From the NCBI RefSeq assembly GCF_003334335.1, contig NZ_QOWQ01000014.1: a stretch of DNA of 64,000 nucleotides. One strand, given 5' to 3'. Position 1 is the stretch's first letter. Every line of letters starts with the position of its first letter. Both the position numbers and the translations under genes were made by a program. The stretch comes from Escherichia coli. Its GTDB lineage: Bacteria; Pseudomonadota; Gammaproteobacteria; Enterobacterales; Enterobacteriaceae. Positions 1 to 13,211 of this stretch are shown here, one piece after another. Below the pieces are notes generated by a model. It saw nothing but the letters and a program-made list of their open reading frames with translations, was not told where the DNA came from and searched no databases.

Positions 1-361
1 GCGCAATTCCGCGCCGCTTCAGTTCACTCTTCAGGGCGGGGGTGAATTGGCTGGTAATAAATGACGGACACAGACGGAAACCACGTCGTAGCCAGTGAAA
101 TAAACACAAACGTTGGTTAAGCACTGTACCTTCAACCCGGTAGCTACCGTCATAACCAGTCGTCAGTGTGAGTTGATGATAGCGCAGGATCTCCCGTCCT
201 GTTTCGCTGATATCAAGACTGGCAATATCATCATCCACACCATTAAGCTCGCTGAAGGTTGCCATGGTGGCGGTCAACCCCGGCTGAAAGAGCGTCAGCA
301 AGATCTGGCAGCGGCGCTGGGGAGCCGAAAGGACAGATGGTGGAGCAAGCGTAGGCATCAT
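1..361 (-). CDS. csiE: CsiE (stationary-phase inducible protein), N-terminal ~120 codons; gene runs off the left window edge
   Basis: Minus-strand translation from the ATG at 359-361 reads MMPTLAPPSVLSAPQRRCQILLTLFQPGL..., recognised as the CsiE N-terminus. Absent from the ORF track because it is truncated by the window edge. Confidence 0.8.
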   Translation of the reverse strand, partial: MMPTLAPPSVLSAPQRRCQILLTLFQPGLTATMATFSELNGVDDDIASLDISETGREILRYHQLTLTTGYDGSYRVEGTVLNQRLCLFHWLRRGFRLCPSFITSQFTPALKSELKRRGIA

Positions 362-5415: not shown

Positions 5416-5802
5416 ATGGCTTACAGCGAAAAAGTTATCGACCATTACGAGAATCCGCGTAACGTGGGTTCCTTTGACAACAACGACGAGAACGTCGGCA
5501 GCGGCATGGTGGGGGCACCGGCCTGTGGCGACGTGATGAAGTTGCAGATTAAAGTCAACGATGAAGGTATCATTGAAGACGCGCGTTTTAAAACTTACGG
5601 CTGCGGTTCCGCTATCGCTTCCAGCTCCCTGGTCACCGAATGGGTGAAAGGGAAGTCTCTCGACGAAGCGCAGGCGATCAAAAACACCGATATTGCTGAA
5701 GAACTTGAACTGCCGCCGGTGAAAATTCACTGTTCTATTCTGGCAGAAGACGCGATCAAAGCCGCCATTGCGGACTATAAAAGCAAACGTGAAGCAAAAT
5801 AA
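5416..5802 (+). CDS. iscU: Fe-S scaffold IscU
   Basis: ORF 128 aa, MAYSEKVIDHYENPRNVGS...; conserved cysteines and LPPVK motif. Confidence 0.97.
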   Translation: MAYSEKVIDHYENPRNVGSFDNNDENVGSGMVGAPACGDVMKLQIKVNDEGIIEDARFKTYGCGSAIASSSLVTEWVKGKSLDEAQAIKNTDIAEELELPPVKIHCSILAEDAIKAAIADYKSKREAK

Positions 5803-8968: not shown

Positions 8969-9169
8969 ATGGGACTTAAGTGGACCGATAGCCGCGAAAT
9001 TGGCGAAGCACTGTACGATGCGTATCCCGATCTTGATCCGAAAACGGTTCGATTCACCGATATGCATCAGTGGATTTGCGATCTGGAAGATTTCGACGAC
9101 GACCCGCAGGCATCCAACGAGAAAATCCTCGAAGCGATTTTGTTAGTCTGGCTGGACGAGGCCGAATAA
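8969..9169 (+). CDS. iscX: IscX (YfhJ), small acidic Fe-S assembly protein
   Basis: ORF 66 aa, [66 protein letters not shown]. Confidence 0.93.
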
Positions 9170-9346
9170 TTTCCGCGTCATGCTTCACGCCGCAGATGCG
9201 TTGGCTGCGCTCGTTCACCCCAGTCACATAGTTATCTATGCTCCTGGGGCTTCACTCACTTGCCGCCTTCCTGCAACGCGAATCATTTAGCGGAAAAATC
9301 CTGGGGCTGCCAACTGGCGGCCCTTTTACAAAGAAGGATAACTAAA

Positions 9347-10630
9347 ATGACAGAAGCGATGAAGATTACCCTCTCTACCCAACCTGCCGACGCGCGCTGG
9401 GGAGAAAAAGCAACTTACAGCATTAATAATGACGGCATTACCCTGCATTTGAACGGGGCAGACGATCTGGGGCTGATCCAGCGTGCGGCGCGCAAGATTG
9501 ACGGTCTGGGCATCAAGCATGTTCAGTTAAGCGGTGAAGGCTGGGATGCGGATCGCTGCTGGGCATTCTGGCAAGGTTACAAAGCCCCGAAAGGCACGCG
9601 TAAAGTGGTGTGGCCGGATCTGGACGATGCCCAGCGCCAGGAACTGGATAACCGCCTGATGATCATCGACTGGGTGCGTGACACCATCAACGCACCGGCA
9701 GAAGAATTGGGACCATCGCAACTGGCACAGCGTGCTGTTGATCTGATCAGCAACGTCGCGGGCGATCGTGTGACTTATCGGATCACCAAAGGCGAAGATC
9801 TGCGTGAGCAAGGTTATATGGGGCTGCACACAGTCGGACGCGGTTCAGAACGTTCTCCGGTATTGCTGGCGCTGGATTACAACCCAACTGGCGATAAAGA
9901 AGCGCCAGTGTACGCGTGCCTGGTAGGTAAAGGTATCACTTTTGACTCCGGCGGCTACAGCATCAAACAGACTGCGTTTATGGACTCGATGAAGTCGGAC
10001 ATGGGCGGCGCGGCAACGGTTACCGGGGCGCTGGCATTTGCCATTACGCGCGGACTGAACAAGCGCGTGAAGCTGTTCCTCTGCTGTGCGGATAACCTGA
10101 TTAGCGGCAATGCGTTCAAGCTGGGCGATATCATCACCTATCGCAACGGTAAAAAAGTTGAAGTGATGAACACTGATGCCGAAGGGCGTCTGGTGCTTGC
10201 CGATGGTCTGATTGATGCCAGTGCGCAGAAACCGGAAATGATCATTGATGCGGCGACCCTCACCGGGGTGGCGAAAACTGCGCTGGGTAATGATTATCAC
10301 GCGCTGTTCAGTTTTGACGATGCGCTGGCCGGTCGCTTGCTGGCGAGTGCCGCGCAGGAGAACGAACCGTTCTGGCGTCTGCCGCTGGCGGAGTTCCACC
10401 GCAGCCAGCTGCCGTCTAACTTTGCCGAACTGAACAATACCGGAAGCGCGGCGTATCCGGCAGGCGCGAGCACGGCGGCGGGCTTCCTGTCGCACTTTGT
10501 TGAGAACTATCAGCAAGGCTGGCTGCATATCGACTGCTCGGCGACTTACCGTAAAGCGCCGGTTGAACAGTGGTCTGCGGGCGCTACGGGACTTGGTGTG
10601 CGCACGATAGCTAATCTGTTAACGGCGTAA
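9347..10630 (+). CDS. pepB: Peptidase B (M17 leucyl aminopeptidase family)
   Basis: ORF 9260..10630. Start trimmed to ATG at 9347 ([21 protein letters not shown]...) for 427 aa. M17 motif NTDAEGRL. Confidence 0.93.
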
Positions 10631-10638
10631 ACTAATAT

Positions 10639-10736
<98 letters not shown>

Positions 10737-10771
10737 TTTGCGCCCCGAACGTTGAATGAATTGTGGTTCTT

Positions 10772-11548
10772 ATGTCCGAAACAAAAAACGAACTTGAAGA
10801 CCTGCTGGAAAAAGCAGCAACTGAACCGGCGCACCGCCCGGCCTTTTTCCGTACTCTACTGGAATCCACCGTCTGGGTGCCTGGTACGGCGGCGCAGGGC
10901 GAGGCTGTGGTTGAAGATAGCGCGCTTGATTTACAGCACTGGGAAAAAGAAGACGGCACCAGCGTCATTCCTTTTTTCACCTCGTTAGAAGCACTTCAAC
11001 AGGCGGTTGAAGACGAACAGGCATTTGTCGTAATGCCCGTTCGCACGCTGTTTGAGATGACACTTGGCGAAACGCTCTTCCTTAATGCCAAAATGCCAAC
11101 CGGTAAAGAATTTATGCCGCGTGAAATCAGTTTGTTGATTGGTGAAGAGGGAAATCCGCTGAGCAGCCAGGAAATCCTGGAAGGCGGTGAATCGCTGATA
11201 TTATCGGAAGTCGCAGAGCCGCCAGCACAAATGATTGATTCACTCACCACCTTATTTAAAACCATTAAGCCGGTGAAGCGTGCTTTTATTTGTTCAATTA
11301 AAGAGAACGAAGAGGCACAGCCTAATTTACTTATTGGCATTGAAGCCGATGGTGATATCGAAGAAATTATTCAGGCGACGGGAAGTGTAGCGACCGATAC
11401 ATTACCTGGCGATGAACCAATCGATATTTGTCAGGTGAAAAAAGGGGAAAAAGGAATTAGCCACTTTATTACCGAACATATTGCGCCATTCTATGAACGT
11501 CGCTGGGGTGGTTTTTTGCGTGACTTTAAACAGAATCGGATAATCTAA
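10772..11548 (+). CDS. sseB: SseB (enhanced serine sensitivity protein B)
   Basis: Track ORF starts at GTG 10763. ATG at 10772 gives MSETKNELEDLLEKAATEPAHRPAFFRTL... (258 aa). Confidence 0.9.
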   Translation: MSETKNELEDLLEKAATEPAHRPAFFRTLLESTVWVPGTAAQGEAVVEDSALDLQHWEKEDGTSVIPFFTSLEALQQAVEDEQAFVVMPVRTLFEMTLGETLFLNAKMPTGKEFMPREISLLIGEEGNPLSSQEILEGGESLILSEVAEPPAQMIDSLTTLFKTIKPVKRAFICSIKENEEAQPNLLIGIEADGDIEEIIQATGSVATDTLPGDEPIDICQVKKGEKGISHFITEHIAPFYERRWGGFLRDFKQNRII

Positions 11549-11860
11549 AATATGCCGCCCAAAGGGCGGCATTCGGGCTTACTTGCTGCTCTGAAGGTTG
11601 TTAACCACCAGTAAATTGTCGCCGGAGAGACTCCGGTTATTATTTACCTCGGTTAACAGCGCACCAGAAACAATAAGTACGATACAAAAGCACCGTATCT
11701 TCATTGTGCGGTCCATGCGAAGACCGCATCACGACAGCACCACTGGCGATATTGCCGCGATAGCAAGCGCTGTGAAACACCTGCATTTACGGCCACGGAA
11801 CATCCTTTCCTAAAGCCAGCGCCCGTTTGCGAGACGGCGGAAAGGGCCGCAGTGGATAAT
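11549..11860 (-). ncRNA. ryfA: RyfA-like ~300-nt transcript (small-protein mRNA / sRNA) in the sseB-sseA intergenic region; ends at the hairpin 11554..11570
   Basis: Minus-strand unit inferred from an intrinsic terminator oriented for the minus strand (stem gccgccc/gggcggc at 11554..11570, U-tract given by the complement of 11545..11553), a minus-strand TATTAT -10-like hexamer at 11866..11871 (no convincing -35 found) and the enclosed small ORF. Position matches my recollection of where ryfA lies relative to sseB. Exact ends are uncertain. Confidence 0.45.
11579..11716 (-). CDS. Candidate small membrane protein, 45 codons (41 from the second ATG at 11704): MDRTMKIRCFCIVLIVSGALLTEVNNNRSLSGDNLLVVNNLQSSK; TimP-like type I toxin candidate
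   Basis: Hand translation of the minus strand. Hydrophobic N-terminal segment IRCFCIVLIVSGALL followed by a polar Asn-rich tail. Stop codon lies 8 nt upstream of the terminator hairpin. No strong Shine-Dalgarno sequence seen. Below the ORF track's length cutoff. Confidence 0.4.
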   Translation of the reverse strand: MDRTMKIRCFCIVLIVSGALLTEVNNNRSLSGDNLLVVNNLQSSK

Positions 11861-12027
11861 ACACTAACAGAACAATAATAACTCTCTTTTGCTTGACAAA
11901 AAGAGAGTTACTGGCGAGTATTGTCTCCGCTGAGACGCGCTTGCATTACTACGGTAATACAACCTGCTGGAAAGGCCGCGAACCGGACCAGCAACAAAAA
12001 ACCGCCTGATTTTGGCGGTTTTTTGTT
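11834..12027 (+). ncRNA. sRNA-like module copy 1 (~194 bp): internal inverted repeat around TTGACA, conserved 22-nt box, intrinsic terminator
   Basis: Inverted repeat actctctttt/aaaagagagt flanks gcTTGACA (11893..11898). Conserved box cctgctggaaaggccgcgaacc at 11963..11984. Hairpin aaaaaaccgcc-tgatttt-ggcggtttttt near 11995..12027 with T-tracts on both strands, so strand assignment is tentative. Longest internal ORF is 12 codons. Confidence 0.4.
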
Positions 12028-12155
12028 TTTTAAAGGAAAGTGAATTTACATGTTTAAGTAATATCTTTTACCGGTTAGAATTTTTAATTTTGAGCAGGAT
12101 TTGTTTATATTTGTCTGAATTCGGACTAATAAGCCAGGTTATTTTATTACCGAAC

Positions 12156-12349
12156 ACGGCGGAAAGGGCCGGTGTCGATAATACGCTAAATAAACAATAA
12201 TTACTCTCTTTTGCTTGACAAAAAGAGAGTTACTGGTGAGTATTGTTTTGCTGTGAAGCACCTGCGTTGCTCATGTAACACAAGTCAACCTGCTGGAAAG
12301 GCCGCGAACCAGACTAGCAATAAAAAACCGCCAAATTCGGCGGTTTTTT
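12156..12349 (+). ncRNA. sRNA-like module copy 2 (~194 bp), diverged paralogue of copy 1
   Basis: Same architecture 322 bp downstream: identical start acggcggaaagggcc, same inverted repeat and TTGACA, identical 22-nt box at 12289..12310, terminator aaaaaaccgcc-aaattc-ggcggtttttt at 12322..12349. Central part diverged (roughly 75-80% identity by eye). Longest ORF 14 codons. The terminator also closes sseA on the minus strand. Confidence 0.35.
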
Positions 12350-12365
12350 ATTGCCTGTAAAATAC

Positions 12366-13211
12366 TTATTTCACTGGCTCAACCGGTAAATCTGCCCGCG
12401 CGCCCCATTCACTCCATGCGCCGTCGTACAGTTTCACGTTTGGCACATCCAGCGTCGCGAGTGCTAACAAAACCACGGCTGCCGTTACACCAGAGCCGCA
12501 GCTGACGATAATTGGTTTGTCGTAGCTGACGCCGCGACCAAAAAATATCGCATCCAGTTCATCGGTCGTTTTTAGTTCGCCTTCGCGCACCAGTTCCGTC
12601 CACGGAACATTCAGTGCTCCGGGAATATGTCCGCGACGTAAACCTGGGCGAGGTTCATCAACTTCTGCGTTAAAACGTGCAGCCGGGCGGGCATCAATAA
12701 TTTGCGCCGTATTTTCATGGCTTGCCAATAATACATCGGTTACTTTCACCACGGCTTCAGGATTAAACGCGGCGTTAAACTCTCCTTCCGGCAGCTCTAC
12801 TGCACCTTCTTCTAACAGCAGATCATCGCGCTGCCAGCCTGCAAGTCCACCCCCCAGAATCGACACTTTCTCTACACCAAAGGTGCGCAGCATCCACCAT
12901 GCTCGTGGGGCTGAGAAAAGATTACCTTCGTCATAGACAATCAGGTGCTTATCCTGGTTAACGCCTAATTCACGCATCGCCACGGCGAACGTTTCCGGGC
13001 GCGGCAGCATGTGCGGAAGCGGGGAAGTGTGATCAGAAAGCGCTTCGATATCAAAAAACACTGCGCCGGGAATATGTCCATTCAGATACTCCTGAGCAAC
13101 GTTACGATCCTCCTGTCCAGGCGACGCCATGCGGGCATCGATAATCTGAATTTCCGGGTCATCAATATGTTCGGCGAGCCAGTCGGCTCCTACAAACCAT
13201 GTCGTGGACAT
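12366..13211 (-). CDS. sseA: 3-mercaptopyruvate sulfurtransferase SseA (tandem rhodanese domains)
   Basis: ORF 12366..13370. Start trimmed to internal ATG (MSTTWFVGADWLAEHIDD...) for 281 aa. Catalytic-cysteine context CGSGVTA present. Confidence 0.9.
   Translation of the reverse strand: MSTTWFVGADWLAEHIDDPEIQIIDARMASPGQEDRNVAQEYLNGHIPGAVFFDIEALSDHTSPLPHMLPRPETFAVAMRELGVNQDKHLIVYDEGNLFSAPRAWWMLRTFGVEKVSILGGGLAGWQRDDLLLEEGAVELPEGEFNAAFNPEAVVKVTDVLLASHENTAQIIDARPAARFNAEVDEPRPGLRRGHIPGALNVPWTELVREGELKTTDELDAIFFGRGVSYDKPIIVSCGSGVTAAVVLLALATLDVPNVKLYDGAWSEWGARADLPVEPVK

Follow-up and report, generated by a model that had tools for sequence, protein, structure and literature searches.

Two TimR antitoxin RNAs of differing recognition type at the timPR toxin–antitoxin locus of Escherichia coli

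Two diverged tandem repeats of about 194 bp lie between the genes sseB and sseA in a 64,000-nt stretch of Escherichia coli DNA (contig NZ_QOWQ01000014.1 of RefSeq assembly GCF_003334335.1; hereafter the window, to which all coordinates refer unless stated), raising the question of what these repeats encode and why there should be two of them. The window is 100% identical to several K-12/B-like strains, and the repeats are flanked by sseB (10763..11548, plus strand) and sseA (12366..13211, minus strand). The locus is thus of the K-12 type, sseB–ryfA/timP–sseA, which is the published and already known timPR type I toxin–antitoxin system. In all likelihood the allele here carries two genes for the antitoxin RNA TimR, namely a distal copy 2 of type B, the working antitoxin, and a proximal copy 1 of type A, which is expressed and non-cognate, the two having arisen by tandem duplication of a whole unit and a deletion of 357 bp.

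The toxin mRNA of the system is the ryfA RNA (11547..11850, minus strand; K-12 ryfA b4440), which matches the Rfam family RF00126 over its full length with 314.9 bits (gathering score 80). It contains the intact timP open reading frame (ORF) of 41 codons (11579..11704, minus strand; K-12 timP b4812), K-12 coordinates being obtained as 2665705 minus the window coordinate. The original prediction, made from the DNA letters, held that the repeats are genes for antitoxin small RNAs (sRNAs) resembling TimR, also known as RyfB1 or STnc2070, that are divergent from the RyfA/timP toxin mRNA, and that the two are siblings. This is borne out by the timR annotation of K-12 and by matches of both copies to a TimR hidden Markov model (HMM; 98.3 bits for copy 1 and 94.4 bits for copy 2). 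An nhmmer profile search also found TimR beside timP in Citrobacter, Salmonella and Superficieibacter with 60-76 bits.

The repeats themselves are as they had been described, with 85% identity overall on pairwise alignment, a spacing of 322 bp, a common start ACGGCGGAAAGGGCC present at both units, and a 22-nt box CCTGCTGGAAAGGCCGCGAACC that is the same in both copies (at 11963 and 12289). They comprise two direct-repeat families, D1 (11834-11924 and 12156-12246; 91 nt, 90% identity, spacing 322) and D2 (11960-12023 and 12286-12349; 64 nt, 84% identity). The inverted repeat flanking TTGACA consists of 12 perfect nt in copy 1 and of 10 perfect bp within a longer imperfect repeat in copy 2, and the terminator hairpins were found at 11993-12027 (copy 1) and 12317-12354 (copy 2). 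The statement that neither module holds a long ORF is correct for ATG starts and incorrect for TTG/GTG starts, with which ORFs of 38 and 46 codons exist. Coding potential of the modules was nevertheless rejected, as none of these ORFs begins with ATG and they either start upstream of the transcription starts or have no stop. Identity of the modules with RyfB and RyfC of K-12 was also rejected, no such genes being annotated at the K-12 locus; these names became shoB and ohsC, at another locus. On the plus strand over the two modules no Rfam family reached threshold, release 15 of Rfam being without a TimR family, and the matches below the gathering scores (rimP leader, AgrB, ohsC and RNAI) all lie on the terminators and were discarded.

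The sRNA had been taken to be the whole ~194-bp module, and here the outcome differs. The RNAs are of about 97-100 nt, starting at 11927 (the 5′ end of the sRNA ECS011) and at 12250 (K-12 annotation), so that the 194-bp repeat is a unit of DNA duplication and not a transcript, with the RNAs corresponding to the 3′ halves only. The left half of each unit holds promoter DNA, the divergent timP promoter included, together with sequence antisense to the 5′ end of timP; the right half is the TimR gene.

Copy 2 (12250..12349, plus strand, 100 nt), the 3′ half of unit 2, has the same orientation as copy 1 and adjoins a 15-nt remnant of a deleted second timP. It is the annotated timR of K-12 (b4811), whose coordinates 2653356..2653455 map here. 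It possesses a recognition sequence of type B at its 5′ end (12250-12266, plus strand), the box (12289..12310, plus strand, exact match) within a hairpin at 12291-12319, and the terminator at 12322-12349. Its promoter region (12173..12249) contains an inverted repeat (12203-12232), a −35 element TTGACA (12215-12220) and a −10 element GAGTAT (12238-12243), a geometry that predicts a start at ~12249-12250, in agreement with the K-12 annotation. An old sRNA candidate, C0614 (U00096.2 2651474-2651560; PMC3175480 supplement), maps to 12167-12253 on the plus strand, covering this promoter region and ending 3 nt into TimR-B, and is probably an imprecise early detection of the copy 2 transcript.

Copy 1 (11927..12023, plus strand, 97 nt) is the TimR paralogue of type A, and nothing is annotated over it in the K-12 reference. 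It is therefore this proximal copy that lacks an annotation, and not, as had been suggested, the distal second module, which is the annotated cognate timR. The recognition sequence (11929-11945, plus strand) is followed by a hairpin SL-A, the box hairpin (11965-11993) and the terminator at 11996-12024; fold and alignment place the 22-nt box (11963..11984, plus strand) in the 5′ arm and conserved loop of this middle hairpin. In both copies the predicted terminator hairpin is followed by a U run. The divergent promoter region of unit 1 (11851..11926) has its 12-bp inverted repeat at 11879-11890/11899-11910, with a −35 element TTGACA (11893-11898), a 17-nt spacer and a −10 element GAGTAT (11916-11921), as well as a promoter-like site on the minus strand. 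The predicted start at ~11927-11929, which is 77 bp (from 11927) from the ryfA start at 11850 on the opposite strand, agrees with the sequenced 5′ end of ECS011. Indeed ECS011 (CCGCUGAGACGCGCUUGCAUUACUACGG...CCAGCAACAA) is identical to 11927..11997 base for base. It was sequenced from K-12, where a 35-nt strand-specific probe to its unique 5′ region gave northern bands of ~95 and ~100 nt, and was equated with IS129 by the authors of Shinhara 2011 (PMC3175480).

It was also observed that the inverted repeats 11879-11910 and 12203-12232 set the TimR −35 element TTGACA back to back with a minus-strand TTGTCA, and the divergent promoters therefore overlap. This promoter inverted repeat is confined to types A and B, while type C and D loci, Salmonella and Citrobacter carry a CTCYC...GRGAG repeat between the −35 and −10 elements.

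How such RNAs find their target is known from Salmonella, where TimR is a divergent sRNA whose 5′ end pairs with the timP 5′ untranslated region (UTR) more than 50 nt upstream of the ribosome-binding site; mutations in the TimR 5′ end or in the timP partner side abolish rescue, and TimR acts on translation with the mRNA level unchanged (PMC7667032). Pairing takes place at the loop and 5′ arm of the stem-loop SL2, with SL2/G76 being protected on binding (PMC11228461), and binding destabilises a pseudoknot between SL1 and SL3 that is needed for timP translation (PMC11228461; PMC13000454). In the window the predicted TimR-binding site in SL2 (11767..11787, minus strand; RyfA nt ~64-84) is of type B, with UGUUU as its variable pentamer. 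Repeat family D3 links this site to both copies, since 11769-11787 in the ryfA 5′UTR has same-strand copies at 11929-11947 and 12250-12268, and the plus-strand RNAs of both modules are therefore antisense to RyfA nt ~64-82. The published contact between TimR 5′ end and SL2 (PMC7667032, PMC11228461) thus takes the place of the box, which had been proposed as the antitoxin–toxin contact.

Comparison of the TimR 5′ end with the SL2 site among complete E. coli genomes showed that the two vary together. At least four types exist in E. coli, distinguished by a 17-nt recognition sequence, namely type A (GCTGAGACGCGCTTGC), type B (GCTGTGAA(A/G)CACCTGC), type C (ACTGTGGGGTGCCTG) and type D (GACGAGATACACTTGC). 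The variable-region versions TGTTT, CGCGT and CACCC of Fris 2017 are equivalent to types B, A and C, respectively, and type D is absent from the four versions given there (PMC5333039). Single-copy alleles are matched, with timP and TimR both being of type A in O111, type B in CFT073 and type C in O157. Among two-copy alleles, CS18F has timP A with TimR A proximal and B distal, ECSD228 and WP7-S17 have timP A with TimR A proximal and D distal, UID2309220033 has timP D with TimR B proximal and D distal, and the window, like K-12, has timP B with TimR A proximal and B distal.

In a base-by-base matrix of these types, cognate pairs form 15-17 Watson-Crick pairs with at most one mismatch. Copy 2 pairs with the K-12 SL2 by 15 Watson-Crick and 2 G-U pairs without mismatch over the 17 positions, in an uninterrupted 17-bp helix. 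Copy 1 lacks such extensive 5′ complementarity to the SL2 of this strain (12 Watson-Crick pairs, 3 G-U pairs and 2 mismatches; longest uninterrupted helix 9 bp), whereas it matches the type-A timP of other strains at 16 of the 17 positions, its 5′ region being identical to that of the O111 TimR. Energies were taken from a windowed, accessibility-corrected interaction scan, full-length RNAduplex predictions of RyfA with each sRNA having been dropped for their huge interior loops and scarce difference from shuffled sequences. Totals were −13 to −18 kcal/mol for cognate and −6 to −9 kcal/mol for non-cognate pairs, and for the K-12 timP −13.0 kcal/mol with copy 2 (best interaction timP 67-83 with TimR 1-17; hybridisation −32.8 kcal/mol) versus −7.1 kcal/mol with copy 1. 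Beyond E. coli, in 15 cognate pairs from five genera and two plasmids (drawn from Escherichia, Citrobacter, Salmonella, Superficieibacter and the two plasmids), 96.9% of pairs at the TimR–SL2 site are standard, compensatory changes occur at 13 of the 17 positions, and none of 2000 partner shuffles reaches the observed pairing. Compensatory changes also support hairpin SL-A and the stem of the box hairpin in the TimR consensus structure.

Judged by its pairing, copy 2 would be the cognate antitoxin of the timP of this strain, and copy 1 is predicted to be a TimR by descent and architecture that is non-cognate for K-12 timP, its binding to that mRNA being weak in the energy model. Experimental support for such orthogonality, at the RNA level only, comes from Shigella, in which RyfB1 lowers RyfA1 and not RyfA2, the latter being of the TGTTT type, i.e., type B (PMC5333039). 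In the mechanism proposed, TimR (97-100 nt) would be transcribed away from timP, from a TTGACA-17-GAGTAT promoter to an intrinsic terminator. Its single-stranded first ~17 nt would repeat the SL2 region exactly, on the same DNA strand, which would make the TimR 5′ end antisense to SL2. On SL2 this end would block the SL1-SL3 pseudoknot and with it initiation of timP translation, as shown in Salmonella. The type-B timP here would accordingly be held by the distal type-B copy 2, with the type-A copy 1 being a match for the timP of most other E. coli.

The presence of the second antitoxin next to no toxin of its own is explained by comparison with strain 1532WA (locus L091, 2201-3400), which has the order sseB, timP(B), TimR(B), spacer, an 87-nt sseB 3′ fragment annotated as a pseudogene, timP(A), TimR(A), sseA. 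The AT-rich spacer between the units in the window (12028..12142), which is the body of the Rfam family IS128, aligns to the inter-module region of 1532WA, and in K-12 this alignment extends as far as TTTATTACCGAACA, the start of the sseB fragment. These 14 nt (12143..12156, plus strand; repeat D4, equal to 11465-11478) are the remnant of the duplicated sseB 3′ fragment and the left edge of a deletion. K-12 then jumps straight to CGGCGGAAAGGGCC, the antisense of timP nt 15..1, which forms the right edge (12157..12172, minus strand, corresponding to the initial ~15 nt of the mRNA of the second, deleted timP); the 357-bp deletion therefore took the remainder of the sseB fragment and all of the distal timP. 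An orphaned promoter-like site of the lost gene is left on the minus strand of unit 2 (12221->12194). The junction of CS18F is identical to that of K-12, for which reason a single deletion event may be proposed, with the proximal timP then replaced by a B-type allele in the K-12 lineage. By this route the whole unit (sseB 3′ fragment, timP, promoters, TimR and spacer) would have been duplicated in tandem, the deletion would have removed the distal timP to leave copy 2 over from a second timPR unit, and a later exchange would have set a type-B timP beside a type-A TimR.

Among 5426 complete E. coli genomes, ryfA/timP is found in all 5426, at 5604 places, with ~170 genomes having more than one ryfA place. 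The IS128 spacer, and hence the second unit, occurs in 2243 genomes (41%), and the K-12-like allele, at ≥99% identity over 1101 bp, in 1516 (28%). By megablast identity bands with short queries, which makes the counts by type approximate, TimR-A is present in 4550 genomes (84%) and TimR-B in 2030 (37%), while timP is of type A in ~2991 and of type B in ~1975. From 4550 with TimR-A and ~2991 with type-A timP it follows that ~1500 genomes have TimR-A but no type-A timP.

Several points weigh against the account of a working copy 2 and a non-cognate copy 1. The 5′ end of copy 2 is taken from the RefSeq annotation and from the geometry of its promoter, the order of deletion and timP exchange is drawn from a handful of alleles, and the type counts carry the approximation stated above. 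The Shigella orthogonality was measured as RNA levels, whereas Salmonella TimR acts on translation, and repression of TimP translation has been demonstrated for Salmonella TimR only (PMC7667032, PMC11228461). For the K-12 TimR–timP pairs the weak binding of copy 1 is itself a prediction, and the U-rich loop of timP-B tolerates G-U pairs, with copy 1 keeping its 9-bp helix and a hybridisation energy of −25.1 kcal/mol. Partial cross-repression of timP-B by TimR-A is thus possible. Cross-pairing was also seen to be asymmetric, in that the timP-B SL2 (11771-11787) pairs with TimR-C at 16 of 17 positions (6 of these G-U), whereas TimR-B on a type A or type C site leaves 5 positions mismatched. From such pairing, type B may be the timP allele most open to cross-repression.

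Taken further, these points would make copy 1 a second, redundant repressor of this timP, the effects of the two copies being additive. This reading draws on the 15 standard pairs out of 17 that copy 1 forms at the same SL2 site, on its expression, as seen in the ECS011 northern blot (PMC3175480), and on its intact promoter back to back with that of timP. It is nonetheless unlikely, as the two mismatches of copy 1 fall within the SL2 loop, the site of nucleation, or directly beside it, its longest helix is about half that of copy 2, its total energy falls in the non-cognate range, and the RyfB1 of the GC-rich type was without effect on type-B RyfA2 in Shigella (PMC5333039).

The box raises a separate question. 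The partner proposed for it was the extreme 5′ end of the RyfA RNA (GCGGCCCUUUCCGCC, 11836..11850, minus strand), which by the Rfam consensus structure comprises the 5′ tail of the timP mRNA and the 5′ arm of lower SL1. The complementarity itself is real, the box segment forming with RyfA nt 1-15 a duplex of −22 kcal/mol with 13 bp and one bulge, a value reached by only 2 of 1000 shuffles of the 5′ end, and only 0.04% of 16-mers in the window are at or below −20. Complementarity of the box to the timP 5′ tail and lower SL1 is kept across all lineages, at −13 to −22 kcal/mol and with 10-13 bp in each of the genera examined, as well as on the Yersinia plasmid pGDT4. The box hairpin carries the core GGCCGC in its loop, the Rfam consensus leaves timP nt 1-6 unpaired, and the contact is colinear with the TimR–SL2 site. 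Moreover, mutation M7, which destabilises lower SL1, abolishes timP translation, and invasion of SL1 could thus be inhibitory (PMC11228461), while the route by which TimR disrupts the pseudoknot has been described as unclear (PMC13000454).

That both modules act through this contact as the regulatory one is, however, distinctly improbable. In published work, mutations and probing locate the essential contact between the TimR 5′ end and SL2 (PMC7667032, PMC11228461), and on TimR binding protection was reported in SL2 with minor changes elsewhere and none at the timP 5′ end (PMC11228461). The box does not vary, and the changes at timP nt 1-2 and 7-10 are one-sided; the pairing of 92.2% is the same after partner shuffling, and there is thus no covariation. 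The energies are equal for cognate (−18.6) and non-cognate (−18.4) pairs and cannot account for specificity. Once the cost of accessibility is counted, the contact shrinks to a 6-bp GC helix of −7.5 to −8.8 kcal/mol, and the 5′ part of the box is tied up in the stem of TimR itself. The box is instead part of the constant scaffold of TimR. In all four E. coli types it supplies the 5′ arm (GCUGG) and the loop (AAAGGCCGCGAACC...) of the middle hairpin. Across a 22-sequence alignment, stem pairing of this hairpin is kept by compensatory changes, as in C. werkmanii, and its loop hardly varies. An auxiliary contact between box and timP 5′ tail is possible, given that lower SL1 is needed for translation, conservation being the one computed feature that speaks for it. 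Descent of TimR from the antisense of the whole timP 5′UTR was considered and rejected (TimR body against antisense timP nt 64..1, site 1 excluded; z from −1.1 to 2.4), the likeness in local alignment being limited to two complementary blocks.

If copy 1 does not serve the timP beside it, it could have been kept for another role, either pre-emptive immunity to an incoming type-A timP or trans regulation of other mRNAs. The ~1500 genomes that keep an intact, expressed, non-cognate TimR-A speak for this, as does the finding in avian pathogenic E. coli that ryfA-deletion phenotypes vanish when timR is also deleted, suggesting other effects of TimR. A TimR-like gene with promoter and terminator but no timP is also found beside sseB in C. 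werkmanii (L014 3399-3489), C. braakii (L018 1151-1242) and a Superficieibacter sp. (L053 3378-3472); no ryfA/timP was detected at these three loci by nhmmer or at the Rfam gathering score, and they look like orphan antitoxins without toxin. In addition, timPR modules are mobile, occurring with recognition types of their own on conjugative plasmids. The plasmid loci are on the IncFII plasmid pGDT4 of Y. pseudotuberculosis (L093 395-990), where a degenerate second module is present in tandem, and on a 48-kb plasmid of E. coli ATCC 25922 (L092 603-1169). A timPR module is present too on an element of ~49 kb found as an E. coli plasmid (beside parA) and as Yersinia phages vB_YpM_39/41/44 (hits H141-H143), which is probably a phage-plasmid. 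Despite this, another role for copy 1 is very unlikely. The K-12-like genomes are ≥99% identical over the locus, and retention may reflect recent common descent rather than selection; the timP type of the ATCC 25922 plasmid matches neither the TimR-A nor the TimR-B recognition sequence, so that neutralisation by either chromosomal copy was rejected; and no other target of copy 1 was identified.

A broader proposal, itself quite unlikely, joins the two preceding lines. Here timPR specificities would be combinatorial, with 17-nt cassettes copied between toxin 5′UTR and antitoxin, about a quarter of strains would keep an expressed orphan antitoxin as an RNA orphan immunity gene, and the GGCCGC of the invariant loop would make a second contact with the timP 5′ tail. 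Were this true, the orphan TimR-A of the K-12 and B lineages would neutralise type-A timP entering by recombination or on mobile elements, and the type-independent GGCCGC–timP 5′ tail contact, by opening lower SL1, would be the missing step in the dismantling of the pseudoknot.

The spacer region also carries a full-length minus-strand match to Rfam IS128 (RF00125; 11982..12190, 262.1 bits, above the gathering score). That this RNA is the functional product, and the plus-strand repeats incidental, is almost certainly wrong in spite of this match, the minus-strand promoter-like site and a bidirectional terminator, as IS128 was undetected with strand-specific probes in K-12 while the opposite strand was detected (PMC3175480), its sequence is a mosaic, and it is missing from 59% of E. 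coli genomes. In this mosaic the timP promoter left orphaned is joined to 15 nt from timP, 14 nt from sseB, the spacer and, in antisense, the copy 1 terminator, which is bidirectional; IS128 is probably a relic and not a functional sRNA. Its plus-strand match over copy 2 has only 34.3 bits, below threshold.

Other rearrangements were observed at related loci. The TimR body is fused directly to the timP SL2 site in E. coli 06-00048 (L006 2859-2960), C. amalonaticus (L023 3508-3604) and S. enterica arizonae (L025 3509-3598). The three lineages are independent, and such a product is expected when a deletion joins the two copies of the recognition sequence that lie on the same strand. The fusion removes both promoters and timP nt 1 to ~60 and looks like a recurrent way of inactivating the locus. 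Insertion sequences are present within the sseB-sseA intergenic region of different strains (L005 2477-2935, L006 3010-4367 and L090 749-1446), these being IS200/IS605, the IS3-family ISEcB1 and IS1A, with the TimR region disrupted in L090 and L006. Elsewhere in the window, sub-threshold Rfam matches to naRNA4, ES036, V_AS5 and CssrA at 10610-10714 and 9118-9295, in the pepB-sseB intergenic region and upstream of pepB, look like repetitive extragenic palindromic (REP)-type elements.

Multi-copy type I systems with antitoxins acting on their cognate toxins only are represented in E. coli by Ibs/Sib and ZorO/OrzO. Like the timPR locus here, these have repeated toxin/antitoxin units and short discriminating stretches of recognition. 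They differ from it in that the Sib RNAs are true cis-antisense RNAs, whereas TimR is encoded beside its target and not opposite, and in that here one antitoxin has no toxin partner left. In the timPR literature zor-orz has been cited as an analogue (PMC7667032). The closest relative is TimP/TimR of Salmonella (Andresen 2020, PMC7667032; Eleftheraki & Holmqvist 2024, PMC11228461; NAR 2026, PMC13000454), which shares with the locus here the position by sseB, the same ryfA/timP mRNA family and a divergent sRNA of ~100 nt with a 5′ end antisense to SL2 and an intrinsic terminator. The Salmonella TimR body is homologous to both copies and the same box hairpin is present in Salmonella diarizonae. 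Salmonella, however, has one TimR, while the allele here has two with different recognition sequences, the cognate one lying ~400 bp from timP behind the non-cognate one. Shigella dysenteriae, with RyfA1/RyfB1 and RyfA2/RyfB2, likewise shows tandem duplication of the module and a variable pentamer in the RyfA stem-loop overlapping the pairing site, RyfB1 acting on RyfA1 only; the K-12 pentamer TGTTT is that of Shigella ryfA2, and CGCGT is type A (PMC5333039). Unlike here, where the distal timP is deleted and the remaining one stands beside the antitoxin type of the other unit, S. dysenteriae keeps both toxin genes.

IS128 and IS129 (Chen 2002, cited in PMC3175480) and ECS011 (PMC3175480) were catalogued as sRNAs with no function assigned. 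In the searchable literature no paper was found linking IS128, IS129 or ECS011 to TimR or timP, or describing copy 1 as a non-cognate TimR for K-12 timP or the deletion origin of the second unit. What is new is therefore copy 1 as a non-cognate TimR paralogue, the system itself, the tandem siblings, copy 2 and IS129/ECS011 being already known.

The known mechanism of timPR is unaffected by these findings. For annotation, they mean that K-12 has an expressed TimR paralogue (IS129/ECS011) missing from RefSeq, and that what the Rfam IS128 family describes is probably a relic, and on the wrong strand. In K-12 or B strains, work on timPR takes place against a background of two TimR RNAs, and as the one adjacent to timP is non-cognate, deletion of the 'sRNA upstream of ryfA' removes the wrong gene. 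For the evolution of such systems, the locus presents a trans-encoded antitoxin that tracks its target by means of a short cassette directly repeated in 5′UTR and antitoxin, a direct repeat that allows for switching of specificity, for orphan antitoxins and for recurrent deletions between the repeats.

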